A stretch of DNA of 64,000 nucleotides from an uncultured Planctomycetia bacterium (GCA_964484255.1 CAZAEH010000003.1:19937-83936); one strand, 5' to 3'. Positions 21,477-39,873 are shown, counted from the stretch's first letter. Made by a program: numbers and translations. Notes: generated from the sequence alone by a model not told the origin.

Positions 21477-23054
21477 TTGGCAGAAGTCCCGCTTACCAGT
21501 ACAAGAGAGAAGATCCCTTTTACTTCCAGCATTAATTTCAGGTTTATCCTGATATTCATACTGCTTGTGACATTCACCACTTTCCTTAGCGGGATGATCC
21601 TTATCTACCAGGGACAGAGTTCCCTTGAAGATGCCGTCCTCAAGAGGAACCTCACCGCGTGCGAGAACGTACGCAGCAAGATAGATAACTTCCTTCAGCA
21701 GGCCAAGTCTTCGGTCGAGCTCATGACCCTAATGCCCAGCATAAAGGATTTTGACCTCTTCCAAATAGACAAGATGATGTACGAGATCATCTCGGAACAT
21801 GAGATGCTGGATCCCGTGGCCGTACTTAACGAACAGGGCATAGAGATAGCTTCGCGAAACCCGGGTGACCAGAACAAAGACATGTCCTTAAGTGATATCT
21901 TCCTGAAATCCAAGAAGAAGAGCTATATATCGGATATATATTTTTCTTCAGACGGCCAACCTTTTGTGACTATAGCTTCCCCCATATTCGATTATGACAG
22001 TTACGGCAGGAGGATAGGCGTCCTTGTGACTGCGGTCAAGCTGCGCAGCCTTTGGCCTATGCTGGACCAGACCAAGATAGGCGAGAGGGGAATGATAATC
22101 GTGACAGACAAAAAGGGCAACCTTATATACAAAACAGGGGATACGGATACCGGTAACCTGTATAATGACAATACGGTGAAACTTGCCCTTGAGGGTAAGG
22201 CCGGAAGCGCTAATATAGGCGACATGCTGGTATCATACCTTCCGTTGTCAGGGAATATCAAAGGCGCTGTCGTAGTAAAGCAGCCTGCCCAGGAAGCGCT
22301 TTACGGCGTGGCGAAGATGAGGAGCCAATCCCTAATCCTGCTTATCTTGAGCATAATGGTGGCCATCGCAATAGGGCTGGTGCTTTCGAACAGCATGCTC
22401 GTATCGGTCAGGAAGCTGCTTATAGGTACCAAGATAGTCGGCGAAGGCGACCTTAACCACAAGATAGACATAAAGACCGATGACGAGATAGGCGAGCTTG
22501 CCAGGTCGTTCAACATGATGACCATTGAATTGAAGAAACAGAGGGAGAGGGCCATAACGGATGAGTTGACCCACCTTTATACGCATTCCTACTTCCTGGA
22601 GACATTGAAAGCTGAAGTGTACAGGGCGAAGAGATATAGGACCAGGTTGTCGCTTATGATGCTCGATATCGACCATTTCAAGTCATTCAACGATAATTAC
22701 GGCCACCAGGTAGGCGATGAGGTCCTGATCAAGATCTCGGATATGCTCAAGGCCAGTCTTAGGGAGTCTGACGTTGCTTCAAGGTACGGCGGCGAAGAGC
22801 TTGTAGTGCTTGCTACAGAGACGGACAGGGAAGGCATATACATATTGGCCGAGAGGATACGCAAGAAGATAGCCGAGGACGTTATAGTCGAATATGAGGA
22901 CAAAAAATTGAAAGTTACCGTCAGTATCGGGGTGACAACGCTTTCGGAGGAAGATATAAAGAAAGATATATTCCCCCATGATTTCCTGAAGCGGGTGGAC
23001 GTTGCCCTCTATCAAGCTAAGGACAAAGGAAGAAATTGCGTCGTCCAGATCTGA
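21477..23054 (+). CDS. membrane sensor diguanylate cyclase (periplasmic sensor domain-HAMP-GGDEF)
   Basis: TTG start after an AGAGGGGG RBS. Two TM segments flank a periplasmic domain of about 250 aa. HAMP region (IGELARSFNMMTIELKK). GGDEF domain with RYGGEEL in place of GG[DE]EF. Confidence 0.75.
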   Translation: MAEVPLTSTREKIPFTSSINFRFILIFILLVTFTTFLSGMILIYQGQSSLEDAVLKRNLTACENVRSKIDNFLQQAKSSVELMTLMPSIKDFDLFQIDKMMYEIISEHEMLDPVAVLNEQGIEIASRNPGDQNKDMSLSDIFLKSKKKSYISDIYFSSDGQPFVTIASPIFDYDSYGRRIGVLVTAVKLRSLWPMLDQTKIGERGMIIVTDKKGNLIYKTGDTDTGNLYNDNTVKLALEGKAGSANIGDMLVSYLPLSGNIKGAVVVKQPAQEALYGVAKMRSQSLILLILSIMVAIAIGLVLSNSMLVSVRKLLIGTKIVGEGDLNHKIDIKTDDEIGELARSFNMMTIELKKQRERAITDELTHLYTHSYFLETLKAEVYRAKRYRTRLSLMMLDIDHFKSFNDNYGHQVGDEVLIKISDMLKASLRESDVASRYGGEELVVLATETDREGIYILAERIRKKIAEDVIVEYEDKKLKVTVSIGVTTLSEEDIKKDIFPHDFLKRVDVALYQAKDKGRNCVVQI

Positions 23055-24328
23055 CCCGGTCTTTCCTGTCGATCGTTTTCATTACGGTTGCCCTATCCGC
23101 GGATTTTCCAGTTCCCGCCGATGTCATCATACGCGATAAAGTCCTGAAAAAAGCCGAGACTATACAGGGTATCGATTTCCCCAAGGGAACGCTTGTTTAT
23201 TTTACGGAAGCCGGAAGATTGCAGTACGCCTACCTTGGCTCAGACCAGCAGGTATCGGGTATTTTTTTTAAAAAGGGTACCTCGGTATATTTCAACGAAG
23301 CGGGAAAGCTCGATTACGCCTACCTTGGCGCAGACCAGCAGGTCTATGGGATACCATTTGCCAAGGGCACCTCATTGTATTTCAACAGGGCCGGAAAGCT
23401 TTTACATGCCGTCTTTGCTGCCGATGAAGAGGTCCAAGGGATATATTGCGCGAAAGGCACAAAAGCCGGTTTTTATGATTCCGGGAAATTGCAATATGCC
23501 ACATTGGCCAAAGACCAGGATATTCAGGGTATCGTTTGCGCCAAAGGTTTTCCCGCCGGTTTTTATGAATCCGGAAGACTGCAGTATGTTACGATCCCCG
23601 CAGATGTCGATATGGGCGGAGTAAAATTCAGGCAGGGGACTTACTTCGTCTTTTATGAATCCGGCAGTATAAAGAACGCGTATCTGGTTTCGCCTACCGA
23701 GGTGATGGGTATCACCTGCGCCAGCGGCCCAAGTGTTAGTTTTTACGAGAACGGGAAAGTAGATTGGGCGGTTCTCAATGAGATCAGCAAGGTACAAGGT
23801 ATCATGTGCGCCAAAGGTTCCACCATAGGTTTTTACCAGTCGGGGAAATTGCAATATGCCACATTGGCGGATGACCAGAACATAAACGGCGTATATTGTG
23901 CTAAGGGCAGTAAAGCCGGTTTTTATCTTTCGGGGAAATTGCAATTCGGAACACTTGTAACCAAGCAAAAAATAAACGGTATTCCCTGCGCTAAGTGCAC
24001 GGTCGCAGGACTTTACGAATCCGGGAAACTGCAATATGCGACACTAGGCGAAGAAAACGAGATAAGCGGCATACCTTGTGCGGCGAACACAAAAGTTGAT
24101 CTTTATGAATCAGGCAGCCTGCAATACGCTTCCCTGGCCAAAGACCACAAGATAGGAGAGACCTTTTTCATGAGGGACACCATAGTTGGCCTTGGAGAAT
24201 CCGGGAAATTACGCTATGTGATCTTGGGCCGCGACCAAGACGTGCAGGGGCACTTTTACCCGAAAGGTTCAAAGATAAGTTTCGACGAGAATGGTAAGCT
24301 CAGGGAAACCGAAAAACCCGCAGAATAA
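23036..24328 (+). CDS. secreted tandem-repeat protein (about 13 copies of a 30-aa unit)
   Basis: TTG start. Signal-peptide-like N-terminus (LTRSFLSIVFITVALSADFP). The body is a 30-residue period, consensus roughly KG(T/S)xxGFYESGKLQYATLAxDQxIxGIxCA. Near-identical 90-bp DNA repeats are visible, e.g. ggaaattgcaatatgccacattggc occurs at 23476-23500 and 23840-23864. Confidence 0.6.
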   Translation: MRRPDLTRSFLSIVFITVALSADFPVPADVIIRDKVLKKAETIQGIDFPKGTLVYFTEAGRLQYAYLGSDQQVSGIFFKKGTSVYFNEAGKLDYAYLGADQQVYGIPFAKGTSLYFNRAGKLLHAVFAADEEVQGIYCAKGTKAGFYDSGKLQYATLAKDQDIQGIVCAKGFPAGFYESGRLQYVTIPADVDMGGVKFRQGTYFVFYESGSIKNAYLVSPTEVMGITCASGPSVSFYENGKVDWAVLNEISKVQGIMCAKGSTIGFYQSGKLQYATLADDQNINGVYCAKGSKAGFYLSGKLQFGTLVTKQKINGIPCAKCTVAGLYESGKLQYATLGEENEISGIPCAANTKVDLYESGSLQYASLAKDHKIGETFFMRDTIVGLGESGKLRYVILGRDQDVQGHFYPKGSKISFDENGKLRETEKPAE

Positions 24329-24367
24329 GAACTCCTATCCGCAAGCCTTCCTGTAACAATAAAATCC

Positions 24368-24396
24368 TTGACGAGCCTTGATACGTGTAATACAAT
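24368..24396 (+). promoter_or_regulatory. sigma70-type promoter TTGACG-17-TACAAT
   Basis: -35 TTGACG at 24368-24373, 17-nt spacer, -10 TACAAT at 24391-24396. Located 33 nt upstream of the ATG at 24429 (RBS GGAAGGAGAGG at 24413-24423). Confidence 0.45.
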
Positions 24397-24428
24397 TATA
24401 TACGAAATATGAGGGAAGGAGAGGCTAA

Positions 24429-24623
24429 ATGGATACAAATACGAAATATATAACAATGGATGAGGTCTCGAGATATCTAAGCCTCAGCGAGGGAAGTATC
24501 CGTAAGCTTATTAAAGAACAGAGTTTCCCGCATGTTAAAGTTTTGAGGAAATACCTGTTCAATAAGCTGGATATAGATGAGTGGCTTAAGATGCATTCTC
24601 AGGGCCTTAAGGCAAAAAAATAG
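24429..24623 (+). CDS. excisionase/MerR-superfamily helix-turn-helix DNA-binding protein
   Basis: 64 aa, …ITMDEVSRYLSLSEGSIRKLIKEQSFPHVKVLRKYLFNKLDIDEWL…. This matches the 'helix_turn_helix, excisionase family' pattern (LTxxEvAeyLxvSxxTiyrLikeGxxPxxKiGrrwrfxxxelxeWl). Confidence 0.6.
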   Translation: MDTNTKYITMDEVSRYLSLSEGSIRKLIKEQSFPHVKVLRKYLFNKLDIDEWLKMHSQGLKAKK

Positions 24624-24649
24624 CATTACCTTAACTTTTTAAAGGGGTT

Positions 24650-27600
24650 ATGCTGAGCCGAAGCTTAATCAAGATTATAACAGTAATATTTACCGCGTCG
24701 ACGGTATTGGTAGTGTTCGTATCCTGTCCGGGCGGTGCGGAAGAATCTTCTCCTGTCGAAGAATTACAGGCGGGAATAGATTGCAGTAATCTCTCGCTTG
24801 AGTCAGCCCTGAACAAGCTTTATGAAGTTGACAGGGATATCCAGATAGCCAAACTTGCCTCCGATGCCGCCGTGCTTGAAATAAAGGCAAGGAAATTGGA
24901 TACTTTCCTTCCCAAGATCAGCATAGCGGGAAGCGTGATAAAACCATTCGACCTCTTCAGCGATCTTGACCAACAGACAGATCTTTTCTCGGAACAGCAA
25001 TTGGTTATAGAGATGTCTATTACTTCCGACAGCCTTAATTATATCTCCAAAGACAGGAAGAACTATGAGGCGAGCCTGCTTGAGATCAAACAGGCCGTAA
25101 CGGAAAGGACAAGGAAACTTATATCTGTATATTATGCGGTTGCTTCAGCTCAGGAAAATTACCGCATGAGCTGTGATAATGTAGAAACTGTTGAAAAAGT
25201 AATAGAGCTTATAAAGGGGAGCCCCGAATACACCGAAACAGAGAAACTTGAATTAAAGAATTATCTGGGCATAGTCAATGAAAGAAAAATAGGGGCGTTG
25301 AATACCCTTATAAATACAAGACGGGACCTCAGGGGATTATTGGGATTGGAGGATAACGATGACCTGGAGATCGTTGTCCAGGAACTTCCCGGCAATGTGA
25401 ACAAGGATCCGGCCTTCGCCGAAAAAGCGGAGATAAGGCCCACTGACTATACGCTTGATATAGTCAAGAAGAGGAGCGAGGAAGCTTCCGTATCGGCCCA
25501 TATAGGCACCAGTCCCCGCCTGAAGCTTGCCTCAACTACTATACTCGGGCTGGCGGAAGGTAAAGGTACCAGGTTTGAAAGGAAAGTTATAACCGACACC
25601 CAGCTGGAGTTATTCGTTACTGATTTCGGCCATTCGGAAGGCTTGAACCGCACGAAAAGTTTGGAATCACAGATAGCCAGGCTTGAGGTGTTAAAGGCTT
25701 CGGAGGACCTTGAGTGTGATGATCTTATGGGAAACGCGAAAATCTCCGACCTCAGCAAGAAGATAGATAATTACAGGGAGTATATAGCGAAAACAGAAGA
25801 TACACTCAGGATGCTTAAGGAGAAACTCTCGCTCCCGGTCATCGAAGTAATAAGGATTAGCGATAACCTTTACAAGGCCAAGTATGCATTACAGCAGGCG
25901 TTGAGCGATTATACGGTAACCTTGTCGAAGCTAAAAGGTGTCGAGATTAAGCCGGAAAATATGAGCCCGGCTTACCAGGACATGGATCTCGGGGACCTGA
26001 TATCAAGAGGAGAAAGAGCGGATCTTCTTACGGCGAGACAGATAGCCGAGAAGAGGATAAAGGTAGAGAAGGTGCGTATAGGTGCAGAGAGGGCCGGTTA
26101 TCTTCCCAAGCTTTACGGAGCGGCAGTACTTGAGAACGTGAACATAAACGGCACGCCGTCCAAGAATACCAGGGCTTTCCTTGCCTTGGAAGGCCGCATA
26201 CTTAACAACAAGGTCGGGGCAGCGGTAAAAGCCGCCAAGGCCGGGCTCAAGGAAGCCGAATACGAAGGCAGGGCGCTCCAGAACGCTGTTGCAGATGAGA
26301 TAATAAAGAATTATCTTCTTGTCCTGCGTTTCACCAACACACTTAAGAGACTCAACGAGATAAAAGAGCTTAAGAGCGGTCTTATAAACGATATGCTTGA
26401 GGACATGAGAAGCAAGAACACTAAATACACAAATTCCGACATACTTCCCCTCGTCCTACAGCAACTGGAAGTGGACAGGGAGATCTCGAATGTCGAATTT
26501 TCCTTGGCAGTGGTCGAATACAACCTCAAGAGATGGACAGGGATACCGCTTAACGAAACTATAACGGTGAAAGACCTGCCCTTGTTCGGCAGCGAAGAAG
26601 GGTTGTCTGATTTTAAAATGATGCTTAAAGGGAAGGTGGCGCCTTATTACGACGGGATGGCTTCCGTAAAACAGGCGCTTAGTTCTGTTGAAAGAAAGAG
26701 GGCCGGTGAGACCAGGGCCTTAGCCTATGAAGGGGCCATATGGCAGGTCAGGTATGAGACCAAGGGTTCCGATTATGACGGCTGGGAAGACCCTGATAAA
26801 CAGCTTTCATTTAGTGTCTCGATCCCATGGGGAGATCATGCCGAGAAGGTTGCCAGGTCCGAAGCCGCCAGGGACCGTATAAGATCTGAGATAGAATACG
26901 CGAAGAGCATGGATTCGTACGAGAAGGAAAGGTTCGCCGTGAAGACCGCCTACGATGCCTCAAATGACCTGCTCGGGGATCTTCGAAATAAAATGGAAAA
27001 TGCCGGTTCCCAGTTCAGGATAACGGATGAACTTTTCAGGTTCGGGGGAAGGACCAAGCGCCAATGGGCGGATGCCCGCCTTGATTATGTAGTTTCTCAG
27101 CTTACCTATGAAGAGGCGATCTTCGATAATTACTATGCCAGCGCCAGGGAGATACTTTTTGTAGAAAAAGATTCCAGACCGGAGGGCGGGGAAAAGATAC
27201 TTTTGTCGGGCCTCCAGGAGGCGCTGGATCTTGCTTTGCGCAACAGCCGTGAGATCAAAAAATACGAAGATGCCCTTGCGCTCGAGGAAGAGTCCCTTAA
27301 CTATTATAAGATGATAAGGGTGAACGGTTCGGTAAGCAAAGGTTATTATGTAATGGACAACAAGGGTTCTCAGAAACGAAAGACAGTCCAGACGACTGGA
27401 GGGGTTATTTCGGCGGAAGTGGACCTTGTGAACAATCTTATGGTCAGGAAACAGGAATTAAGGGTAGAGTTGGCCAGGAAAGACCTCGAACAGGCCAAGT
27501 TCGATCTTAACATAAGGGTGGTCGATTCATACTGCAATTACCTGGCCTCGCTTGCGGAGTACTCCCAGGTAGGCGGTGAGTACGAAAAACAGAAAGCTGT

Positions 27601-28498
27601 GCTCGCAGGGATCGAGGAGCTTTACACGGCGGGGGCGGTAGCCCACGTAGATTACCTCAAGCAAAAGGAATTTGTAGAAAGCCTCCTGCAAAAAACAATC
27701 GATGTCCGGAAATATTGCGAGGGTTACAGGAGCAATCTCGGTATAGTGGTTGGAGGGCTTGACCCCAGGTTCTCCGTAATGAATATCGAAGTATATGACG
27801 AATCATCCAAGAAGGTTATGTTGGCCGATAACTGTGATATAAAAGAAAGGCTTACCGCCGAACTCGGGTCGGCGAAGAAGGAGCTGGAAGTGCCGTTGCG
27901 CGCGGACCTGCTGAAACGGACCGAATGCAATATAGGAATGGCCAGGCTCGATACCGAGGCCATATCAAAGCAGATCAAGTCCCTGACATTCAATCTCGAG
28001 TATACTTATCTTACCGACTTTATGGGGGCGGTAACAAGGAATGAGGCCATATTCTCACGCTATAATTCCCTCTCGGAGTTCATATCCCTTAATTCCATGG
28101 ATAAGATATTCGATCCTGCCACGGCCACCAAGGCGAGGGTAGCTGCGTTAAAGGAAAAGATAACGGCCCTCAAGTCGAAATCGTACATGTCTGAGGTGCT
28201 CCAGAATGCCCTCAGGATCTTCACCGATTATAAGATGGCCGTTTTGGACTATGAGAATTTTGAAAAGAACGTATCCGTGCTCGAGGAGCGGATGAGCGAG
28301 CTCATGCGCGCTGAAGAGGCGACCGGGGACATGCCTGTCGTAAGGATCAGGGAGATAAAAGAGACCCTGCTGAACAATAAAATAAAGGATATACAGGCTT
28401 ATTACCATATGGTCAGTCTTATGAACGAGCTTGACCGGTACCTTATGAGGTATACAGCCAAGGGCATCGATTCATATATAACTTACGTGTCAAAATGA
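24650..28498 (+). CDS. giant outer-membrane-factor (TolC/NodT)-like lipoprotein, 1282 aa
   Basis: Lipoprotein signal with lipobox (…LVVFVSC). Repeated OEP-like segments (LSLESALNKLYEVDRDIQIAKLASDAAVLEIKARKLDTFLPKISIAGSV; DLLTARQIAEKRIKVEKVRIGAERAGYLPKLYGAAVL; LSGLQEALDLALRNSREIKKYEDALALEEESLNYYKM…) lie within extensive predicted coiled coil. It is about three times the length of TolC. AAAGGGG RBS; stop overlaps the next start (ATGA). Confidence 0.45.
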   Translation: MLSRSLIKIITVIFTASTVLVVFVSCPGGAEESSPVEELQAGIDCSNLSLESALNKLYEVDRDIQIAKLASDAAVLEIKARKLDTFLPKISIAGSVIKPFDLFSDLDQQTDLFSEQQLVIEMSITSDSLNYISKDRKNYEASLLEIKQAVTERTRKLISVYYAVASAQENYRMSCDNVETVEKVIELIKGSPEYTETEKLELKNYLGIVNERKIGALNTLINTRRDLRGLLGLEDNDDLEIVVQELPGNVNKDPAFAEKAEIRPTDYTLDIVKKRSEEASVSAHIGTSPRLKLASTTILGLAEGKGTRFERKVITDTQLELFVTDFGHSEGLNRTKSLESQIARLEVLKASEDLECDDLMGNAKISDLSKKIDNYREYIAKTEDTLRMLKEKLSLPVIEVIRISDNLYKAKYALQQALSDYTVTLSKLKGVEIKPENMSPAYQDMDLGDLISRGERADLLTARQIAEKRIKVEKVRIGAERAGYLPKLYGAAVLENVNINGTPSKNTRAFLALEGRILNNKVGAAVKAAKAGLKEAEYEGRALQNAVADEIIKNYLLVLRFTNTLKRLNEIKELKSGLINDMLEDMRSKNTKYTNSDILPLVLQQLEVDREISNVEFSLAVVEYNLKRWTGIPLNETITVKDLPLFGSEEGLSDFKMMLKGKVAPYYDGMASVKQALSSVERKRAGETRALAYEGAIWQVRYETKGSDYDGWEDPDKQLSFSVSIPWGDHAEKVARSEAARDRIRSEIEYAKSMDSYEKERFAVKTAYDASNDLLGDLRNKMENAGSQFRITDELFRFGGRTKRQWADARLDYVVSQLTYEEAIFDNYYASAREILFVEKDSRPEGGEKILLSGLQEALDLALRNSREIKKYEDALALEEESLNYYKMIRVNGSVSKGYYVMDNKGSQKRKTVQTTGGVISAEVDLVNNLMVRKQELRVELARKDLEQAKFDLNIRVVDSYCNYLASLAEYSQVGGEYEKQKAVLAGIEELYTAGAVAHVDYLKQKEFVESLLQKTIDVRKYCEGYRSNLGIVVGGLDPRFSVMNIEVYDESSKKVMLADNCDIKERLTAELGSAKKELEVPLRADLLKRTECNIGMARLDTEAISKQIKSLTFNLEYTYLTDFMGAVTRNEAIFSRYNSLSEFISLNSMDKIFDPATATKARVAALKEKITALKSKSYMSEVLQNALRIFTDYKMAVLDYENFEKNVSVLEERMSELMRAEEATGDMPVVRIREIKETLLNNKIKDIQAYYHMVSLMNELDRYLMRYTAKGIDSYITYVSK

Positions 28499-31400
28499 GA
28501 CCGGAGATGGCCAAGAACGGCAAAAAGGTAATTATAGTATTGATAGCGGTGCTGGCGGTGCTGCTTGCCATGCGTTCATGCCACAGGCCTGCCTTCAAGG
28601 CGTCAGTCCGTGAACCTTCTCCGGCCGAGCCTGAGAAGGCGATACCGGTTACCGCAGCGAATCCTTTGGATAATTCAAAGCAAAAGGATGGCCCGATAAA
28701 TGCCGGCGAGTTGGCAACTTTCATACTCGAATGGTCTGATCCTGGTACGGGCCTTGTGCCTACCATGATAGCCAAGTCAGGCGAGAAGAACCCCTTTGCA
28801 GAGATGTCTTATGTGTATCCTCAGGCTCTTGCCCACCAGAATATGGTTATGGCCGGTCAGCACGAATTTTCTTCCAAGGTTGCCGGGTTGTTGATGGAAA
28901 GAGGGGAGACTAGGGACATTCCCAACGGTCTTAACGTAAGGACCGGGTTGAGTGAAGATCCCCTCATAACGGCAGGGCCCAACGCCTGGTGGGGAATAAG
29001 TTTCATAAGGGAATTTCAATTGAGCGGTGATGAAAAATGGCTTGCCGCGGCTGAACGCCGTGCCGAGTTCCTTATAAATCTCCAGGCGGACAACGGGGGC
29101 ATAAGGAAATACCCGTTCCAGGGCAATACGGAATATTATGCTAAGTCGACAGAGGAGAACCTGGACTGTTATGTCCTGTTCGGGATGCTTTACGATATCA
29201 CCGGTAATGGTGTTTACAAGAATGCCATGGACAATATCCTTAAATGGATGGTATCGAGCGGCGTATACAACATAAAAGGAGGGTATTTTACAGCCGGTAC
29301 TTCTAAAGACGAGATAAATGATGTTTATGCTACTGACGCAAACGCACTTGCCATTATAATCCTGGGGCCCGAGGTCCTGGATTCGGAGTTTGGAGTGAAA
29401 TTCGGGGGGATCCGCACAAGCCGCAGGTTGCTTGAGAACCTGGAAAGGGCAAGGGTAAAAGTAGATTATTTGCATCCTAGCGGGGTAAAGGTCAAGAACG
29501 TAGAGGGATTCGATTTTACCGATAAATTCGGCAGGCCGGGCAGAAAACCTGTGCTGTCTCCGGAGTTCTCTTCCCAGGTTGCACTGGCTTATCTTGTTAT
29601 GGCCAAGCACGCAAGGGATAAGGGGGATAATGAAACCGCGGTGAAGTTTGTCGATACGGCAAAGTTATACCTTGATAACCTAGGGCGTATGGCCGCAAGG
29701 ATGGGTGTTTCCGCGTCGCTTCCTTATGCTTCCGAAAAAGGGATCAGGCGCTACCCATTCGATAACTGGCTTACTCCGCAGGCGGATGCCGATATCTCGG
29801 CCACGTGGACGTCATTCCCTCTCTCCGGGTTTAACCCGTTTGACCTCAACGGATTCGCGTTGCGCGACTCACTCAAGGATATTGCTAAGTGGATGAACGA
29901 ACAGGGCAAGGTGACAAAACCCTCCAAAGCGATAGTTATCCCGGAGCAGGAGAGGGTGATATCTGAAGCGGAACTTATCGCGCAGCGGGAGGCCAGCAGG
30001 GATGCCGCCCTCAAGAAACCCATAGTTTATTATAAGGTCCTTTACGACCAGGTCCTCAAGGATGCTACGATAGCCAGGAAGAGGGCCATAGCAGTCCTGA
30101 TGACTAGCTATAATTGCTGGTTTGACGGGGTGTTGGATACGCAAAAACGGGATTATGATGTTATAGGTGTTGACGGCGGTTTCAAGATAATTTACAAGAA
30201 GTTCTCAGACCTCCCGGAGCCCCTGAGCAAAGCTATCAGGTCGGAATATGCCTATTTCGACGATTCGACCGGAATCAAATGGAGGATAGCACCGAAGTAC
30301 AACCTGCGCCTGGATGGTAATTATAAGCCTTATTATGCTTTTGAGATAGACGGCGACTACAACATAGTAAGGCAGTTCTCTTCCGAGAACGACTTGCCTG
30401 AGGCCAACAGGGAAGACCTTAAGAACCAGGCCCAGCAGTTCCAGTCCGCAAAAGACCTGCCAGAGGGCCATTTGATAGCCAGGTATTTTACAGCCCTTGA
30501 AGTTGACGCGGATATGAATATACTCCAATATTATGATTCCGTAGAAGACCTGCCGGGCCTTGTTTCTAAAGTACCTATTACCGAACAGGAATACAAGAAA
30601 TATGTAAACGCGCAGGACTGGCAGAGGGCAGACCTGATATCTGCCGGTGTGGTCCCTGACGACAAGGGCATGCTTGCTACCCAGGAACGCGGCATGTACT
30701 ACGCCAGGGTCCTTGGGCTTGATGAGACAAGGCGATTACGGGTGGGCGGCGTTTCGGTCAAGAGCGGACAGGAAATAGTCATGGGTACCAAGTTCAACCT
30801 CACGAATTGGAGGACGAGCGAGACCTCGAAGTTGAACGCCGTGAAATATGAGCGGGGCCTTATCGAGGGCATGGTCATAAAGCCAAGGAAAGAATTCACC
30901 GGGAGCAGACCTACCCCTACGCAGCCGTTATGGATATACCTCGGCAATGACGTGATAGCTTCGGAGACAAAAGAATTCAAGGAAAGGCTGCTTGAACTGC
31001 TCAAAAGGGTCAGGGAGGAGAAGGATGCGCAGACCCGCCTCGAACTGATCGAACAGTATGACCGCCTTTCCAACGAATTGGCCTGGTATGACGACGACGG
31101 GTTTATCCACGTAATATATTATGGTGCAAAAGCAGCCGAAAAAAGGTTAGGCGAATTCGAGGTGGCAAAAGAAAGGGCTGAATCCACCCTAAGGAGTTAT
31201 GAGTCCATACTGGGCAAGGACGAATTCGGACGAGACCTGCGTGATGCTTCGGGCAGGGTCTGGCTCAAGGTGGTCAATGAAGCTACCGGTAGGGTCCTTT
31301 ATGTGGAGGTCTATGATATTGCCGGTAACCTTGAGACCATATATTCCGAGAATATACAGATAGACCCGCTTACAAAAGTCGTTACTTCTGATATCAGGAC

Positions 31401-34400
31401 GGATATCGAATACGACAAAGACACGCTTCAGGTGGTGGGCGGCCATACTTATCGTACGGATGAGAACGGAGAGTGGCTTTCCGATTTATCCGAGAGCATC
31501 TTCAAAGGTTACACCCCGGATAAGAAATATTTCGTCTCGGAAGTACATGTATTTGCCAGAGATGAAGACGGGAGGATAATATTCGAGGACGGCAAGGCAC
31601 GGTACACAAAGAAAATAGAATATTATACGCCGGAAGGTGATATATCCGCGCAGATAGTCAAAAACATAATAACCATAGTAAAATACGGGCCCGACCAAGA
31701 GGTCACCAAGGAAGTCTTTCTTGAATCGCCCGGCAAGACTTTATCGGATGAGGTCCCTAACCTTGAGAATCTGACCCAAGGTCTCGCGTGGGTACGCCGT
31801 TACAAGACTACCGGGAAGATCATGAATTTCAAGGAAGCATTGACCAAGTCGCTTACGTCCTTGCCCGAAGGTGAAAGGGAGAGGCAGGCTATACTTATAC
31901 TTAACAGGCTTGGCGCAGAGAAGGTAGGCAGGGTCAGCGACAGCCTTGTACTGGAGGAGAACGAGGTAACAAACAACCTCATCGGTGACCCCAACGCTCC
32001 GGGAGAGACGCCCTATTTCGTTTTCTATGAACCTGGGGACAGTCTTGGCAGGCAGAGGTTGATAGTCCGCGGCGGCACTATAGAGGTCCCGGTAGATTGG
32101 ATAGCCGAGACCGAAATACCGGCAAAGACCCTGACGTTCAACCTTGCGGGAGAACTTGTGTCGATAAGCGATGTCGACAACTCTGTCCGCGCAGATTCGA
32201 TACTCTCTCCCAAATATATAAAGAGAATGGAGCCTTTGGGCATATATGCCGATACCCTGTTGCCGCAGATGAAGAAGAGGATATTCAGGATGGTGACCGG
32301 GGAAGACGGGCTTCCGCATTTCACCAATACCGTAGCCATAACAACGGTCAGTTATATGATACCGGATGACGTGCTTGGGAGGGAATTGGTGAACGTCAAG
32401 TTCGTAATGCTCGGCGATGAGACGACATTACATAAAGGAAGCAAGCTTAAGCTCAAGAAGAACATGTTCGGCAGGGACACCCTGCTGGAATCCTGGAAGG
32501 ACGACAGAGGGGAAGACCGCACCCGGGCCATAGCCAAGAAAGAAGATACAGTCATCTATGAGTGGTACAAGGAGGGCCTGGAGGTAGACGAGTTAAGGGA
32601 ATTGCTGAAGTCCGAGTACGGGAAGCTGATCAAGCGAAAGGCGCTTGATGAGGCAATGAATAATATAGAAAAAGCCCCGTTCGGGACACTGCCCGGTTAC
32701 CATATAATAGAGCCAGGCGGACGCGTCGGAGAGATCAAATATTTCTCCGGAACGCTCGAGTATCCGCGCAGCGTATTCAGCCATCCGATGATCAAAATCC
32801 CTTATGAACCTGAGGTGAAACCGTTCAAACTTCCTGACGGACCTCCTATAAGGGGCGTCAAATACGGCGTCTTGAATTCCGACTACGCTTTTTACGATGT
32901 CCATTCCCTGAGCGGGCAGCTGATCGTGCTCGAGCGCCGCTTCATAATATTAAGGCTTATGAACATACTCCCGATACAGGGAGGGAGGCAGACGGAATAT
33001 TATGATCCGCTTGTCCCGTATTCATACCTAAGGCCCATAAAGATAGAAAGATATTTCAAACCCGGTACCCAGCCGGAAGGTACGCAACCGGGTACTCAGA
33101 TAGTAGCGGTTTTCCTCGGAGATGCCAGCGTTTACCATCGCAACGGATGGCAGACGCAGACATTCCTCGAACGCAGGCCGTTCGATATCGAACACTGGAT
33201 AAGGTCTGACTACGAGTTTGATGACAACGGTGTGTATAAGTATAAGAAGGAGCATATTGAAAGCAGCTCAGTATACCTCATGAAGACCATAAGATGGCAG
33301 AAACCCCTTCTCTCTGCCGTGTTATTTGCGGGTGCGCTCTTCATGTCCGGATATATATCCAGAAGGAGACTGAAAGCAGGCAGGACCCGCAGGATAAAAG
33401 TTGCCGAGGATGAAGCAAGGGTACAGGCGCCGCCGAAAGGCGCCATAGCGCCGTTTAACAAGGCCTTGCTGGAAAGATCGAACGTTCCTGAAGAGGTCAA
33501 GAAAGCCTGCATAGATGTCTACGAGGGGAATAAACCTCCGTCCGTGCTTTTTGCCGTGGTCATGGAAAAGTTCCGTCCTTTACTGGAAGAACGTTTCCGT
33601 GGTTTTGGCGCAGATCCTTCAAGGCATACCGCCGGTATAAATGTCATAATAAAGAGGATAGCCGACAGGATAGGGCGCGAGGAGATAATCCTCGGTAACC
33701 TGTTTGCGGTTGAGGCGAGGGAGTTTGAGAAATGGTCGGCCAAGAACGGAAGCGGGATCAGGCTGTCAGGCCTTGGGAATAAGCCGGATGAACTCGCGCT
33801 TGTGGCGCTGTTCCGCCTGATATTTGACGAATCCGTGGAATTCAGGGCGGCGGTGCCAGGTTTCAGGAATTACCTGCTTGATAAATCGCTTGGCATACTG
33901 CGTTCCGGAAAAGGGCCCGATGTATTGAAAGAGATCCGAAGCGATGTGCAGGTGTTCATAGAAGCTTTGAGGCCCGGATATGATAAGAAACTTGGCCTCA
34001 TAAAGGAATATATATTCACTTATGACGACATGAACGACCTTTTCGAAGGCAAGAGGCCGGGATTCATAACTTCTTTCGCTAAACTGGCGGGAGCTTCCGC
34101 GGAACAGAAACTTTTGTTCCTGGCGACAAAAGGCGGCAAGGAGCCCTCATCGGACCCGAAGTCTTATAAGAGCTATGCTTGGATGAAGACATTCCCGGAC
34201 AAGGCCGGTATACCGCAATTCGTCGATAACTTGCGCAGGTTCTGGGAGTTCCTAGTACCGATATTTTCCGTTGTTACCCTCGGCGGAGCGGCTATAGCCT
34301 TGAAGCTCTTGCCGTTTGCCGGGAGGATTGAGCAGCTGTCCGTCCACCTTGTCGGGATTCTTTCTCCGATTGCGCGTTTGTCCCCGAACGTGTTGGCCGT

Positions 34401-37400
34401 GTTCATAGAGATAACCCTCTTGATCCTGGCCGGAGTAATGCTGACGGTATTATTAATGAAACGGAGCCTTGGCAACTACAGGCCGGCTCACCTTGCAAGC
34501 GCGGAAAGCAGCGAGATAAGACGCTCTACCAGGCTGTTCTGGGTGATGTTCTTTTCCGCATCGTACCTGTGGGGCCTGTTCAGCATATTCGTGATAATTT
34601 GGACGGTCAGGATAATAATCAAACTTACGTTCGTGAACGCGGGCTGGGGCTTGTTCATCAACTCAAGCGCGCTGCTGCTTACGTTTACTTTCATACTTTC
34701 CAGTTTCTTCTCCCTGTTCTACATAATAATAGCCCTTATAGGTTTTTACCGGGGAAAGAGGGAAGGGGTCGGCCAGGTCATATCATGGGGCCAACTGAGA
34801 AGGAAATTCGGGTTATCGATGCAGCGTTTCTCGGATGTGATGATGCCCTCAGGGGGGCAGGCTTCCGGCCGTGCTGATGAAACGTGGAAGTCCTATTGGA
34901 ACGCCATGATAAAGGAACTCCATGATTACTATATAATAAGCGGAAGAGAGAAAGAGTCGCTTGTCTATTCATCCGGTAATCCCGCTCCGAAAATTGACAG
35001 GCCGCCGCGCGCCGAAGAGGCCTCGGAAAGGATAAGGATCTATATTAACAGTTGGCTCATGGAACTGCCCAAGGCGGAATCCTGGACGGATCTGCCTTCA
35101 CTGACGGCCATGATAACCGCTTTTAACGAACCTGTCAGTTTCACGTTCGATGAGCTCAACGGTTGCGACAGGGGCGCCGAAGTCACGAGGCTGAACCACC
35201 TGATAGGTTTTTACAGGCCCCAATGGGAAGAGTTTGTCAACAGGCTTGGCAGCTCCGATCTGGGGCAATTTGTGACACGGGAGCAACTAAAGCTGTTATT
35301 CGGCCTTAAGAGGCTCCCGGAAGGGCTGCCTGAACAGCTTAGGGAAAAGATACGCAAGTGGGCTAATCTTACCGTCCAGTGTGTTGAGAAGACGGTCGTG
35401 GAAGTATACAAGATACGGGACGCTTTTGCTATGTACGCCCGTATCTGTTACCCCGGGTTTTCCGACGGAGAGATAGAACGCATGGTTTCCGAGAAGGTCC
35501 AGATATTGCTCAACTATGAGGGGTATCATAGCCCCGCGACCAAGGATTCGGACAGGATAGCCTTGAGAAGATTAATGAAAGAGATGCCGAAGCTCAACGT
35601 TTATTGGTCCGCCAGCGATGCAGATTACACGTCCGGGGAAGACGAAACGGCCGTTGCCTATTTCAAGGGCGGCGACTGCGGCCTGCACAGGTATGATGAG
35701 GCTTCCGGCAGGATAGAACTTATAGAGACCGCGCCTTTTGTAGCGCCCGTTAAAAAAGGTAAGCCGAGCGGCCTAAACCAGGCCTTGCCTTTCATAAAAG
35801 GCGAGACCGTACTTTTCTTCGATGCCAACTGTTCTGTAAGGGTAGAGGATGCCGTAAAGATACCGGTGGCATTATCGGAGTTCAGGAACGATCCCGCTCT
35901 CGGAGAGGTCCTGTTCGCGGAGTATATATTCAACAAGAATTACTCATGGATATCTCAGGCGATAGGTTTCAACGAGGAGACGTTCGTATCCGTTACGCAA
36001 CGCACCCTGAATATATTCCAGGCCTGCGGTTTTTACGGCCATAGTGCGATCATAAGGACCGATATGATAACAGCTGCGGGAGGTTTTCCGCAGGACTACA
36101 TATCAGAGGATATACTGTTGGCTACATCTCTTTGGAAGAAAGGTTTCAGGACCGCTCACAAGGAGTACTTGCTCTTCGGTAAAGGCAGGGAGACCTCATA
36201 TTTTACCAGCCTTGTCCCGCTTACAAAATGGGCCATGGGATCTTCCGATGCCGCCATAGGCAGGGTAATCCCCGGTATATTGGATTCCGAGAAACTGCAC
36301 GTAGCCCAGAAGTTCATGCTTATGTTCGGGTTCTCGTTCTTCTACCAGACTCCGCTAATGTTTATAATCAATTTTCTTTACCTGTGGTTGATGATATGCT
36401 GGGGTATAAACGGTTTCATGGCCGTGCCGTATCCTATAGTATTCGGTATATTGGGGCTGCTTTTCAACCAATCTATAACCGCAACGGGTATCGCATACCT
36501 GCTTGAACATTTTGGATTCAGGAAATCTTTCTCGGCATATTTGAGGCTGGTTGCAAAGAACCATTTCTTCTACGCATCGGTCATACCGGCGTATGCCTTC
36601 GGGTTCCTCGCCGGACTTAAAGGGAAGGCTATATTCATAATAAGCCCGAAAGGGTGGAACCTCGGCCATTTACCGCTTAAGATCATCTGGGGGGAGAAGA
36701 GGGACATACTCAAGGCTTCCATGTTCAGCACGATAATAGGCCTGCCTTTGGCCTATGTGGCGGTGGCGACGAAGTCAATGCCGTTGTGGCTTAGCCCGTT
36801 CATACCGTTCCTGCCTTTTGCCATAGTTGCCTTGATGTATACCGCCGGGGTCAAATGGAACAAGATAGGAATACCGTACCTTAAGAACTGGCGCGACGAG
36901 GTAGTCCCTGACGGGGATATAGGGAAGATGTCGGTGATCAAACTGCAGATGATATATGCCGTGGTCCTTCTCGTCTTCACGGGAGTGGGTTTCGTCATGT
37001 GGGGCCTGATATTCTCATCACTGGCGGTCAAGGCGTTGTTCATATTCTCGGCTCTGTACATAAGTACGACGTTGTCTTTCATAATAATGCCGCTTTTTGC
37101 CCATTCGCAGCCTATAGCACTCTTCAAAGAGTTGACGATCTCGAGGTTCTGGAACTTTGTGATAATGCCGTTGCTGTTTGTTTGTGTTGTCCTGGGCATC
37201 AGTTCTATAGCCTCGGGACCGGCTACTGCGTCTCCTGAATCGGTGGTCTATACACTGCTAGGTATATCTTCCCTGATAGGTTGGGCGTTGCTGAAATGGA
37301 AACTCAGCGGTTATACTCGATTGAATAAATGGCTGAAGAATAACCTGCAAGGCTACCCGGCTGCTTCTTCGGTCCAGAAGTCCGATCTTATGGACGACAT

Positions 37401-37854
37401 GTATTTTTCGCACCAGGAACTCATACAGAGCGACAGGCAGGCCGAGATAAGGTATAACAGGGTACTGGGCAAGGTAAAAGCCGTGTTCATATTTACTATC
37501 CTGTTGACACTCCTGCTCTATTTTGCCTCAGAGTTCAACGCGAAATGCTATTCTCACTGGTTATGGGTTTTTGTGGTGTTAGAGGCAGCGTATATGCTAA
37601 TCCTGAACGTAGAGCATACCTCCGATGACAGGGTCTACCTGGGCAAGTTTTACAGCAGCGTGATCATCAATGATTTTAACAGGCTTAATGAGAACGTCAG
37701 GGCAATGGAAGATATCTGGAAGAAACTGGACCGCGCCTACAAAGCCAAGCTTGTGAGGATCTATGAGGATGAGGTGAGAGCCAAGAAAGCGGTCACGATC
37801 TATATGTCCAGGTGTATAAAGGCGTTCTCGACAGACTTCCAGAAGATTACCTAG
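28495..37854 (+). CDS. 3119-aa multidomain membrane protein: N-terminal anchor + periplasmic GH8-like region + polytopic processive GT2 (cellulose-synthase-like) glycosyltransferase
   Basis: Single 9.36-kb ORF, ATGA-coupled to the upstream gene. N-terminal TM at aa 12-27. GH8-signature-like YATDANALAIIIL at about aa 280. TM at about aa 1610. Two TM clusters flank a cytoplasmic domain. That domain has K-x-x-GLNQAL, an F-F-D-A-N-C D-x-D equivalent, an S-E-D…KGFR TED equivalent, and an L-T-K-W-A-M-G QxxRW equivalent, in the spacing seen in BcsA/chitin/hyaluronan synthases. Confidence 0.6.
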   Translation: MRPEMAKNGKKVIIVLIAVLAVLLAMRSCHRPAFKASVREPSPAEPEKAIPVTAANPLDNSKQKDGPINAGELATFILEWSDPGTGLVPTMIAKSGEKNPFAEMSYVYPQALAHQNMVMAGQHEFSSKVAGLLMERGETRDIPNGLNVRTGLSEDPLITAGPNAWWGISFIREFQLSGDEKWLAAAERRAEFLINLQADNGGIRKYPFQGNTEYYAKSTEENLDCYVLFGMLYDITGNGVYKNAMDNILKWMVSSGVYNIKGGYFTAGTSKDEINDVYATDANALAIIILGPEVLDSEFGVKFGGIRTSRRLLENLERARVKVDYLHPSGVKVKNVEGFDFTDKFGRPGRKPVLSPEFSSQVALAYLVMAKHARDKGDNETAVKFVDTAKLYLDNLGRMAARMGVSASLPYASEKGIRRYPFDNWLTPQADADISATWTSFPLSGFNPFDLNGFALRDSLKDIAKWMNEQGKVTKPSKAIVIPEQERVISEAELIAQREASRDAALKKPIVYYKVLYDQVLKDATIARKRAIAVLMTSYNCWFDGVLDTQKRDYDVIGVDGGFKIIYKKFSDLPEPLSKAIRSEYAYFDDSTGIKWRIAPKYNLRLDGNYKPYYAFEIDGDYNIVRQFSSENDLPEANREDLKNQAQQFQSAKDLPEGHLIARYFTALEVDADMNILQYYDSVEDLPGLVSKVPITEQEYKKYVNAQDWQRADLISAGVVPDDKGMLATQERGMYYARVLGLDETRRLRVGGVSVKSGQEIVMGTKFNLTNWRTSETSKLNAVKYERGLIEGMVIKPRKEFTGSRPTPTQPLWIYLGNDVIASETKEFKERLLELLKRVREEKDAQTRLELIEQYDRLSNELAWYDDDGFIHVIYYGAKAAEKRLGEFEVAKERAESTLRSYESILGKDEFGRDLRDASGRVWLKVVNEATGRVLYVEVYDIAGNLETIYSENIQIDPLTKVVTSDIRTDIEYDKDTLQVVGGHTYRTDENGEWLSDLSESIFKGYTPDKKYFVSEVHVFARDEDGRIIFEDGKARYTKKIEYYTPEGDISAQIVKNIITIVKYGPDQEVTKEVFLESPGKTLSDEVPNLENLTQGLAWVRRYKTTGKIMNFKEALTKSLTSLPEGERERQAILILNRLGAEKVGRVSDSLVLEENEVTNNLIGDPNAPGETPYFVFYEPGDSLGRQRLIVRGGTIEVPVDWIAETEIPAKTLTFNLAGELVSISDVDNSVRADSILSPKYIKRMEPLGIYADTLLPQMKKRIFRMVTGEDGLPHFTNTVAITTVSYMIPDDVLGRELVNVKFVMLGDETTLHKGSKLKLKKNMFGRDTLLESWKDDRGEDRTRAIAKKEDTVIYEWYKEGLEVDELRELLKSEYGKLIKRKALDEAMNNIEKAPFGTLPGYHIIEPGGRVGEIKYFSGTLEYPRSVFSHPMIKIPYEPEVKPFKLPDGPPIRGVKYGVLNSDYAFYDVHSLSGQLIVLERRFIILRLMNILPIQGGRQTEYYDPLVPYSYLRPIKIERYFKPGTQPEGTQPGTQIVAVFLGDASVYHRNGWQTQTFLERRPFDIEHWIRSDYEFDDNGVYKYKKEHIESSSVYLMKTIRWQKPLLSAVLFAGALFMSGYISRRRLKAGRTRRIKVAEDEARVQAPPKGAIAPFNKALLERSNVPEEVKKACIDVYEGNKPPSVLFAVVMEKFRPLLEERFRGFGADPSRHTAGINVIIKRIADRIGREEIILGNLFAVEAREFEKWSAKNGSGIRLSGLGNKPDELALVALFRLIFDESVEFRAAVPGFRNYLLDKSLGILRSGKGPDVLKEIRSDVQVFIEALRPGYDKKLGLIKEYIFTYDDMNDLFEGKRPGFITSFAKLAGASAEQKLLFLATKGGKEPSSDPKSYKSYAWMKTFPDKAGIPQFVDNLRRFWEFLVPIFSVVTLGGAAIALKLLPFAGRIEQLSVHLVGILSPIARLSPNVLAVFIEITLLILAGVMLTVLLMKRSLGNYRPAHLASAESSEIRRSTRLFWVMFFSASYLWGLFSIFVIIWTVRIIIKLTFVNAGWGLFINSSALLLTFTFILSSFFSLFYIIIALIGFYRGKREGVGQVISWGQLRRKFGLSMQRFSDVMMPSGGQASGRADETWKSYWNAMIKELHDYYIISGREKESLVYSSGNPAPKIDRPPRAEEASERIRIYINSWLMELPKAESWTDLPSLTAMITAFNEPVSFTFDELNGCDRGAEVTRLNHLIGFYRPQWEEFVNRLGSSDLGQFVTREQLKLLFGLKRLPEGLPEQLREKIRKWANLTVQCVEKTVVEVYKIRDAFAMYARICYPGFSDGEIERMVSEKVQILLNYEGYHSPATKDSDRIALRRLMKEMPKLNVYWSASDADYTSGEDETAVAYFKGGDCGLHRYDEASGRIELIETAPFVAPVKKGKPSGLNQALPFIKGETVLFFDANCSVRVEDAVKIPVALSEFRNDPALGEVLFAEYIFNKNYSWISQAIGFNEETFVSVTQRTLNIFQACGFYGHSAIIRTDMITAAGGFPQDYISEDILLATSLWKKGFRTAHKEYLLFGKGRETSYFTSLVPLTKWAMGSSDAAIGRVIPGILDSEKLHVAQKFMLMFGFSFFYQTPLMFIINFLYLWLMICWGINGFMAVPYPIVFGILGLLFNQSITATGIAYLLEHFGFRKSFSAYLRLVAKNHFFYASVIPAYAFGFLAGLKGKAIFIISPKGWNLGHLPLKIIWGEKRDILKASMFSTIIGLPLAYVAVATKSMPLWLSPFIPFLPFAIVALMYTAGVKWNKIGIPYLKNWRDEVVPDGDIGKMSVIKLQMIYAVVLLVFTGVGFVMWGLIFSSLAVKALFIFSALYISTTLSFIIMPLFAHSQPIALFKELTISRFWNFVIMPLLFVCVVLGISSIASGPATASPESVVYTLLGISSLIGWALLKWKLSGYTRLNKWLKNNLQGYPAASSVQKSDLMDDMYFSHQELIQSDRQAEIRYNRVLGKVKAVFIFTILLTLLLYFASEFNAKCYSHWLWVFVVLEAAYMLILNVEHTSDDRVYLGKFYSSVIINDFNRLNENVRAMEDIWKKLDRAYKAKLVRIYEDEVRAKKAVTIYMSRCIKAFSTDFQKIT

Positions 37855-39226: not shown

Positions 39227-39241
39227 TTAGGAAAATATACT

Positions 39242-39258
39242 CTTTTTTGCCAAAAAAG
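39242..39258. promoter_or_regulatory. 8-bp inverted repeat CTTTTTTG-C-CAAAAAAG in divergent intergenic region
   Basis: Perfect palindrome arms at 39242-39249 and 39251-39258, between the divergently transcribed 459-aa gene and cvpA. Candidate operator. Confidence 0.3.
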
Positions 39259-39277
39259 TCAAGTATTTTACCGTACC

Positions 39278-39306
39278 TTGACAATTCTAACCCTATGTGG
39301 TATACT
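39278..39306 (+). promoter_or_regulatory. sigma70-type promoter TTGACA-17-TATACT upstream of cvpA
   Basis: -35 TTGACA at 39278-39283, 17-nt spacer, -10 TATACT at 39301-39306. Confidence 0.45.
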
Positions 39307-39326
39307 TACTTCCAAATATCAGGAGA

Positions 39327-39851
39327 ATGATCTTGCCGGAAGTCTTCCAGCGTGTCAATTGGGTTGATGTTTTAACCGTAATCCTTTTGTTAAGAACGTG
39401 TTATATCGGCGCCAGGACAGGTCTGTCGGTAGAGATTTTCAGGACAATAGGGGTAATATTGGGATTATATGTTGCCGCCAAGTATTATTCTCCTCTTGGT
39501 AGCAGGATAAATGCCGGGTTCTCCCTTCCGCAAGACCTGGTAGACGGGTTCTCTTTTGTGTTACTGGTGCTGCTTCCCATGCTGAGCCTTAAACTCATTG
39601 CTTTAGGGCTTACAAAGATCGTCAAGCTCTCTTTTGCCGACAAGATAGACAAGTGGGGAGGTTTTTTGGCCGGCCTTTTAAGGGGAGCCTTGCTGTTAAG
39701 CCTTCTCTTCATGTTGTTCAATATTTTAAATGTGGATTACCTGATAAGATCGGTTGATGAACGGTCGCTGTCGGGTCCTTACATCAAGCAGATGGTCCCG
39801 TATGCTTATAAGGTAGTCGAGAAGACCTCCCCGGAAGATAAATTGAAATAA
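39327..39851 (+). CDS. cvpA: CvpA family membrane protein
   Basis: …VNWVDVLTVILLLRTCYIGARTGLSVEIFRTIGVILGLYVA… with 4 TM. Start is ATG 39327 or the in-frame TTG 39333 after an AGGAGA RBS; the track ORF start at 39297 is probably too early. Confidence 0.7.
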   Translation: MILPEVFQRVNWVDVLTVILLLRTCYIGARTGLSVEIFRTIGVILGLYVAAKYYSPLGSRINAGFSLPQDLVDGFSFVLLVLLPMLSLKLIALGLTKIVKLSFADKIDKWGGFLAGLLRGALLLSLLFMLFNILNVDYLIRSVDERSLSGPYIKQMVPYAYKVVEKTSPEDKLK

Positions 39852-39873
39852 TACAAATAGACAGGAGGAAAAA

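Follow-up and report, generated by a model that had tools for sequence, protein, structure and literature searches.

In the stretch of DNA analysed here (the window, 64,000 nucleotides of an uncultured Planctomycetia bacterium, GCA_964484255.1 CAZAEH010000003.1:19937-83936), the open reading frame (ORF) at 24650-28498 on the plus strand runs unbroken for 1282 codons and encodes a 1282-residue outer-membrane factor (OMF). We read this protein as a single-chain, pseudo-trimeric TolC-type channel that serves as the outlet of a glucan-secretion machine spanning the cell envelope, a joint reading to which we give a probability of about 0.7. That the protein is a single-chain channel of the TolC type is very probable, and its role as the dedicated outlet of the synthase encoded directly downstream is favoured with less assurance. 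Known OMFs measure 472 ± 30 residues over 5000 proteins (PMC4827864), and TolC-family channels are described in reviews as trimeric (PMC8277102).

A triple-length outer-membrane factor with six OEP repeats

The Pfam OEP profile (PF02321) matches the whole OMF in four stretches, with 88.2 bits and an E-value of 7.6e-25. When the protein was cut into six consecutive fragments, each scanned alone, every fragment matched the profile, and four of the six did so individually above its curated cut-off of 22 bits (Table 1). Both weak matches lie at the positions expected for a second repeat and align with its C-terminal portion in the profile. The OMF is built of six OEP repeats arranged as 3 x 2, corresponding to three TolC-protomer equivalents of about 400 residues each. 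It stays under the subfamily thresholds of NCBIfam, scoring 14.3 bits with the NodT model (TIGR01845, cut-off 210) and 15.7 bits with the model for TolC of type I secretion (TIGR01844, cut-off 225). A preliminary description, made from the sequence alone, had presented the protein as a lipobox-bearing TolC/OEP-family member of triple normal length, and the significant OEP matches bear this out. The OEP-like segments that it placed near residues 47, 450 and 835 each correspond to the first repeat of a module, and its possible fourth near residue 1050 falls on the second repeat of module 3; these positions stand, and the count of at least three was too low by comparison with the six now found. 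The label "NodT-like" fits the lipobox and is contradicted by the NodT score.

A good ribosome-binding site, AGGGG, precedes the OMF start, and the N-terminus, MLSRSLIKIITVIFTASTVLVVFVS-C26, reads as a hydrophobic signal peptide followed by a PROSITE-type lipobox, with a single hydrophobic segment detected by hydropathy in the whole protein (residues 6-24). The lipobox cysteine is limited to the close clade; five relatives (P0002, P0008, P0009, P0012 and P0013) have a signal peptide without it. The mature protein has a mass of 142.1 kDa. At the other end, the tail formed by residues 1248-1282 (28391-28495) reads IQAYYHMVSLMNELDRYLMRYTAKGIDSYITYVSK and holds the motif D-x-Y-L-x-R/K-Y-T-x-K-G. 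In the family alignment, the C-terminal motif of module 3, NELDRYLxRYTxKG, is among the most conserved parts, and the tail may form the seam at which a pseudo-trimer closes, or else a docking element.

An exhaustive HMMER search over 1.84 billion cluster representatives returned 14 matches. Seven of the matched clusters are full-length (1266-1369 residues), 28-63% identical to the query and colinear with it over nearly its whole length, and the remaining matches are fragments and four ordinary OMFs of 440-560 residues at E 1e-4 to 1e-5. Close relatives (1251-1283 residues, 62-89% identity) come from metagenome-assembled genomes (MAGs) of Omnitrophota, and distant ones from Omnitrophota and the candidate lineage UBP3. 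With about eight clusters the family is small; it is found in Omnitrophota and allied MAGs, and its members are triple-length throughout. Colinear, end-to-end relatives of 1251-1369 residues and 28-89% identity in independent MAGs and metagenomes rule out an artefact of assembly or a frameshift. The 608-residue protein P0015, considered as an intermediate architecture, was rejected as a truncated fragment that ends mid-helix at the third periplasmic tip. Neither family gained members in word-indexed searches, for which the family profile and the synthase core served as queries. NCBI-derived records name the relatives only "TolC family protein", and precomputed OEP matches are faint or missing in distant members, so that surveys of domain architecture would miss the family.

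Predicted fold and divergence of the three modules

Residues 47-1246 of the OMF were modelled as a monomer with AlphaFold2 (AF2), using a family alignment of 14 sequences. The model has a mean predicted local distance difference test (pLDDT) value of 84.2 and a predicted TM-score (pTM) of 0.77, and displays 12 strands in six hairpins together with six long helices, each followed by a shorter partner helix (Table 1). The strands, 11-16 residues long and mostly at pLDDT ~75-95, fall at the positions expected for TolC hairpins and show the alternation of polar and non-polar residues that is the pattern of membrane β-strands. The long helices measure 61-68 residues, and the linkers between modules 17-19 residues.

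Comparison of the model with the Protein Data Bank (PDB) using Foldseek showed that the best 39 matches are all OMF protomers, with a probability of 1.00, from TolC, SilC, OprJ, OprM, OprN, CmeC, CusC, VceC and MtrE. The TM-scores are 0.57-0.75 when normalised to the target and ~0.27 when normalised to the query, which means that each solved protomer spans one third of the model. The family profile also matched CmeC (E 3.8e-5) and OprJ among PDB sequences by sequence alone, and a phmmer search of these sequences with the single OMF sequence gave spurious matches only. The TolC homotrimer has 12 strands, a barrel of ~40 Å, a helical tunnel of ~100 Å and a mass of ~150 kDa (PMC8277102). According to the model, one OMF chain appears to supply the element count of this whole trimer and thus to be a pseudo-trimeric monomer. 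From the element count, the pTM, the one-third superpositions and the short linkers, we infer that the predicted barrel closes within one chain.

The long helices of TolC are reportedly given as 67 residues by Koronakis et al. in 2000. Those of the OMF match this length, so the extended tunnel, one of two alternatives in the preliminary description, is not supported. The "long coiled coils" seen in it correspond to the six long α-barrel helices of the model, and the predicted fold goes beyond coiled coil in holding 12 β-strands. As for the unusual oligomeric state that it envisaged, the modelled chain, with 12 strands and 12 helices of its own, points that way.

The three modules are highly diverged from each other. 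Self-BLAST of the OMF protein found no internal repeat, and hhalign found no match between its thirds when these were taken from a shallow 8-sequence alignment. Profile-profile comparison of the thirds from the 14-sequence alignment placed them in register over 320-370 columns at only 13-18% identity, with P-values of ~3e-5 to 4e-4 for global and 0.002-0.012 for local alignment. The modules are no more similar to each other than to ordinary OMFs, for which structural alignments give 12-16% identity. A recent tandem duplication, one sense of the duplication suggested in the preliminary description, was rejected given the empty self-BLAST and the weak matches between modules. The six periplasmic helix-turn-helix tips are all different (GSPEY, LSLPV, KNTKY, FGGRT, AGAVA and TGDMP), and every tip retains its own signature across orthologues, down to 28% identity. 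With modules this divergent and six distinct tips, the channel is without three-fold symmetry, and the family-wide conservation of the tip asymmetry suggests selection.

Conserved pairing with an FKS1-like synthase and genomic context

The OMF gene stands directly before a gene for an FKS1-like synthase of ~3100 residues in all seven distinct locus types examined on their visible downstream side (the window, L001/L002, L009, L012, L013/L014, L015 and L011/L016/L017). Over these loci, the identity of the OMF to that of the window is 63% in L001/L002, 40% in L015 (cut by the contig end), 37% in L009, 29% in L013/L014, 28% in L012 and 28-30% in L011/L016/L017. In the window the OMF stop overlaps the start of the 3119-residue synthase ORF by 4 nt (ATGA), an overlap also present in L001 and L009, in agreement with the translational coupling noted in the preliminary description. 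In L011, L016 and L017, two genes stand in place of the single synthase gene, first a 1661-residue GH76-like periplasmic gene and then a 1447-residue catalytic gene. In this UBP3-type lineage the pair lies directly after an OMF of 1321 residues (4968-14344 in L016/L017, 13799-18784 in L011). The natural split shows that the N-terminal module is a separable unit and marks the domain boundary, and it also makes a smaller experimental construct available.

FKS1-type and GH76 families are best known from fungal cell-wall biology. The synthase of the window (28495-37854, plus strand) joins an FKS1-like core and a GH76-like segment located in a huge periplasmic module. Its N-terminal part starts with a transmembrane (TM) anchor at residues 12-30, followed by ~1900 residues that are predicted to be extracytoplasmic. 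Pfam recognises a GH76-like (alpha/alpha)6 segment at residues 163-272, and a profile of the N-terminal module matches alpha-1,6-mannanases in the PDB with E 1.2e-7. This module is 42-75% identical across the family and is better conserved than the OMF. In the C-terminal part, TM clusters lie on either side of a cytoplasmic processive glycosyltransferase domain (residues 2172-2642). Pfam matches there include Glucan_synthase (E 1.6e-26) and Glyco_trans_2_3, and the core matches yeast FKS1 (E 2.4e-11) better than BcsA (E 6e-7) among PDB sequences. On these sequence matches the core is assigned as FKS1-like.

With a threshold as loose as E <= 1, Pfam gave no HlyD, Biotin_lipoyl or membrane fusion protein (MFP) match in the operon proteins or in the periplasmic module scanned as fragments, and no ABC or RND gene lies in the operon or nearby. 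Scans of the module with Pfam in overlapping fragments and with the family profile against the PDB detected no adaptor-like, TPR or carbohydrate-binding domain.

Upstream of the OMF, the gene for the small HTH_17 protein ends 23 nt ahead of the OMF start, and L001, L002 and L015 also have this small gene in front of the OMF. The promoter match in front of it, a pattern match only, may mark the start of an HTH-OMF-synthase transcript. A GGDEF gene adjoins the OMF-synthase pair in L001, L009, L013 and L018 as well as in the window, and the encoded dCache-HAMP-GGDEF cyclase is likely a regulatory input through cyclic di-GMP (c-di-GMP). Between this gene and the HTH_17 gene, a gene overlapping the GGDEF gene end by 19 nt encodes a protein made up almost wholly of MORN_2-type repeats of ~24 residues (G-I-x-C-A-K-G-x-x-x-G-F-Y-E-S-G-K-L-Q-Y-A-T-L), with counterparts of 410/420 residues in L001 and L009; the protein is an uncertain member of the system. 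On the far side of the synthase, the convergent 459-residue protein matches nothing in Pfam or NCBIfam and lacks hydrophobic segments, and a protein of 447-460 residues occupies the same position in L001, L016 and L017. The flanks are housekeeping genes, those for fatty-acid synthesis and electron transfer flavoprotein (ETF) on the upstream side and those for primase and sigma-70, with the dcw cluster, on the downstream side. The G+C content is ~0.45 in the 2-kb bins 24001-26000 (5' part of the OMF gene) and 38001-40000 (region of the 459-residue protein gene), and ~0.50 elsewhere.

Two other loci differ in their surroundings. In L013 (3606-9681), genes divergent from the triple-length OMF encode a GT2 glycosyltransferase (510 residues), an MFP-like protein and an ordinary OEP protein of 423 residues; the MFP-like assignment is a faint BSH_CzcB match, and the set includes two further proteins. 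The presence of a 423-residue OEP gene beside an MFP-like gene in the same genome indicates that the long OMF is a specialised addition and not the sole TolC. In L012, the most distant locus, the OMF-synthase pair is immediately preceded by a gene for a GH16 / SKN1-KRE6-like beta-glucanase (7477-8394) and a two-component system. The GH16 gene gives weak support to a beta-glucan product, and the arrangement suggests that regulation is lineage-specific.

Table 1. Features of the OMF gene, the synthase gene and their neighbours in the window (residue numbers refer to the protein named)
Feature	Nucleotides	Strand	Basis
dCache-HAMP-GGDEF membrane diguanylate cyclase	21477..23054	+	Pfam GGDEF E 1.5e-43
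430-aa secreted protein, ~14 MORN_2-type repeats	23036..24328	+	translation, Pfam MORN_2 32.4 bits
Sigma-70-like promoter match TTGACG-17-TACAAT, upstream of HTH gene	24368..24396	+	consensus scan, 10/12
64-aa HTH_17 (excisionase/MerR-like) DNA-binding protein	24429..24626	+	Pfam HTH_17 E 2.9e-11
OMF signal peptide and lipobox, aa 1-26, VFVS-C26	24650..24727	+	translation, hydropathy
OMF module 1, aa 47-445, first TolC-protomer equivalent, two OEP repeats	24788..25984	+	Pfam, AF2
OMF module 2, aa 446-853, second protomer equivalent, two OEP repeats	25985..27208	+	Pfam, AF2
OMF module 3, aa 854-1282 and stop codon, third protomer equivalent	27209..28498	+	Pfam, CmeC/OprJ profile matches, AF2
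OEP segment, OMF aa 50-188, 36.5 bits			fragment scan
OEP segment, OMF aa 366-429, 14.5 bits, weak			fragment scan
OEP segment, OMF aa 464-631, 26.1 bits			fragment scan
OEP segment, OMF aa 701-825, 25.0 bits			fragment scan
OEP segment, OMF aa 855-1006, 35.4 bits			fragment scan
OEP segment, OMF aa 1174-1265, 12.3 bits, weak			fragment scan
Module 1 predicted strands aa 89-99, 113-125, 291-303, 309-324; long helices aa 128-188, 328-391			AF2
Module 2 predicted strands aa 487-499, 502-517, 696-707, 716-728; long helices aa 520-586, 732-797			AF2
Module 3 predicted strands aa 889-903, 911-925, 1111-1121, 1143-1154; long helices aa 928-993, 1158-1225			AF2
ATGA overlap of OMF stop and synthase start	28495..28498	+	sequence, ORF coordinates
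Synthase N-terminal part, aa 1-1919	28495..34251	+	hydropathy, Pfam GH76
Synthase C-terminal part, aa 1920-3119	34252..37854	+	Pfam, PDB sequence matches, TM segments
459-aa protein, convergent, overlaps synthase 3' end by 8 nt	37847-39226	-	ORF

Proposed mechanism, alternatives and significance

In the mechanism that we propose, the signal peptide would be cleaved and Cys26 lipidated (in this clade), and the resulting 142-kDa chain would replace three subunits. Its six beta-hairpins would close into a 12-stranded outer-membrane barrel, and the six long and six short helices would form an alpha-helical periplasmic tunnel of ~100 Å. At the inner membrane, the FKS1/BcsA-like core would polymerise glucan and move it across, polymerisation and inner-membrane passage both being established for the FKS1 and BcsA families. 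The ~1900-residue periplasmic module of the synthase would stand in for an HlyD-type adaptor and dock 1:1 on the asymmetric channel tips, so that the polymer could cross the periplasm and the outer membrane through the single-chain channel. The ATGA overlap would favour equimolar synthesis of OMF and synthase, and the neighbouring dCache-GGDEF cyclase may place the system under control by c-di-GMP. A single asymmetric polypeptide partner would explain how a pseudo-trimer, fused and diverged and bearing six different docking tips, could take the place of a symmetric trimer, and would likewise account for the translational coupling of the two genes.

Compared to the OMF family (TC 1.B.17), the protein of the window is built of the same OEP unit, is predicted to share the protomer fold (TM-scores of 0.57-0.75 against solved structures), and likewise has 12 strands and 12 tunnel helices with long helices of similar length; it shares a signal peptide and lipobox with the OprM/NodT-type lipoproteins. 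Unlike the known homotrimeric OMFs of ~470 residues, it fuses three protomers in 1282 residues, has lost the three-fold symmetry, and has no MFP, ABC or RND partner nearby. The closest functional parallels are systems composed of a synthase, HlyD and TolC. One is a cyanobacterial (Thermosynechococcus) cellulose synthase with HlyD-like and TolC-like partners, as described in the passage of PMC8892547 that cites Maeda et al. 2018, and another is BgsA/BgsB/TolC of S. meliloti, which serves a mixed-linkage beta-glucan under c-di-GMP control (PMC13438883). As in these systems, a processive inner-membrane glucan synthase is paired here with a TolC-type outlet instead of a porin of the BcsC/PgaA/AlgE type, and the GGDEF gene adjacent in most loci may provide a link to c-di-GMP. 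In contrast to them, an HlyD-type adaptor is absent and a conserved periplasmic module of 1660-1900 residues with a GH76-like piece is found instead, the synthase core resembles eukaryotic FKS1 more than BcsA, and the outlet would be an operon-encoded, dedicated single-chain channel and not a shared trimeric TolC.

A 12-stranded barrel can be made from one chain or from 3 x 4 strands, as in the monomeric type Va and the trimeric type Vc autotransporters, respectively. By analogy and not by homology, the OMF would correspond, in one chain, to the TolC barrel of 3 x 4 strands; autotransporters are unrelated to it in function and in their fold beyond the barrel. No description of a fused, single-chain or triplicated TolC or OMF was found in the open-access literature, which likewise held nothing relevant on TolC in Omnitrophota, and two papers on the giant genes of Omnitrophota are silent on TolC and on glucan synthase. 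As far as these searches show, only the trimeric solution has been described for TolC so far, and a precedent may have gone unnoticed.

Several observations weigh against the reading of a single-chain exit duct. Two of the six OEP segments score under the Pfam cut-off. Closure of the barrel was read from the summary values of the model and not from its coordinates, and the model ends at residue 1246, leaving the last 36, highly conserved residues outside. It was built from an alignment of only 14 sequences, and AF2 may be biased towards the familiar TolC assembly. On the side of the synthase, the AF2 model of the core (residues 1920-3119, 7-sequence alignment) reaches only a pLDDT of 49.7 and a pTM of 0.31, and the GH76-like piece is the only part of the periplasmic module that was recognised by the fragment and profile scans. 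Pfam found no PilZ or other c-di-GMP receptor domain in the synthase, and L012 has its two-component system in place of the GGDEF gene. Finally, contact between the OMF and the synthase, the glucan substrate and control by c-di-GMP are, like closure of the barrel, inferred parts of the proposal, whose observed basis is the domain content, the predicted fold, the triple length across the family and the conserved adjacency of the two genes. The two weak OEP matches, together with the faint or missing precomputed matches of distant members and a mostly helical sequence, might also indicate a helical periplasmic or surface scaffold with OEP-like hairpins, in which the strands would be artefactual. 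This is highly improbable in view of the 12 strands at TolC hairpin positions, mostly at pLDDT ~75-95 and with alternating hydrophobicity, the strong fold matches to complete OMF protomers including the barrel part, and the presence of a signal peptide and lipobox.

If the protein is a channel, its chain might still not close on itself, and several chains could form a larger or multi-channel complex, either with three chains making three channels of like modules or with a dimer or trimer making a barrel of 24-36 strands. The characterised OMFs are all oligomers (PMC8277102), the modules have diverged enough to have self-interfaces of their own, and the AF2 input was a monomer, with oligomers outside its reach. 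One chain, however, already holds exactly 12 strands and 12 helices at a pTM of 0.77, its mass equals that of one TolC trimer, and its partner is encoded once and translationally coupled 1:1. In addition, linkers of 17-19 residues suit neighbouring positions in one barrel and are hard to square with bridging separate ~70 Å channels, by a qualitative geometric argument, and we regard a multi-chain assembly as improbable. Somewhat less remote, and still unlikely, is a single-chain channel of general purpose that serves efflux or type I systems encoded elsewhere, its adjacency to the synthase being due to co-regulation or chance. TolC-family channels are typically shared by several pumps and often unlinked to them (PMC13438883), no adaptor is recognisable in the operon, and even for S. 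meliloti the authors state that TolC has yet to be proven to carry glucan directly (PMC13438883). Against this stands the adjacency itself, which is kept in every examined locus, including those with the 4-nt overlap and the split-synthase lineage, while the OMF falls to 28% identity. At least one genome with a triple-length OMF has an ordinary 423-residue OEP gene by an MFP-like gene for conventional duties, and asymmetric tips fit symmetric hexameric adaptors poorly.

With the single-chain exit duct as the preferred reading, we tentatively propose a more specific version, which is possible and rather less secure than the exit duct itself. The OMF and the synthase may form an undescribed synthase-dependent polysaccharide machine that works without an HlyD-type adaptor or a TPR-porin, in which a monomeric, symmetry-broken TolC is docked 1:1 on the periplasmic module of the FKS1-like synthase and the fusion was selected by this single asymmetric partner. 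The OMF would then be the first natural single-chain TolC.

Such a channel would show that the 12-strand, 12-helix architecture of TolC is reachable by gene fusion. Its six tips and each third of its lumen would be independently mutable, which is impossible in a homotrimer, making asymmetric docking and gating testable. For its assembly, the beta-barrel assembly machinery (BAM) would need to fold six hairpins, with helical segments of ~200 residues between them, from one 142-kDa chain, and a single-chain TolC scaffold may be useful in the engineering of nanopores. A bacterial FKS1-like synthase of this size merits a study of its own; if our reading is true, it would be a bacterial enzyme related to the beta-1,3-glucan synthases of fungi and plants and equipped with an outer-membrane outlet of its own. 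To our knowledge, Omnitrophota is a phylum without cultured model organisms, and the OMF-synthase pair would represent an uncharacterised route by which glucan crosses its diderm envelope.

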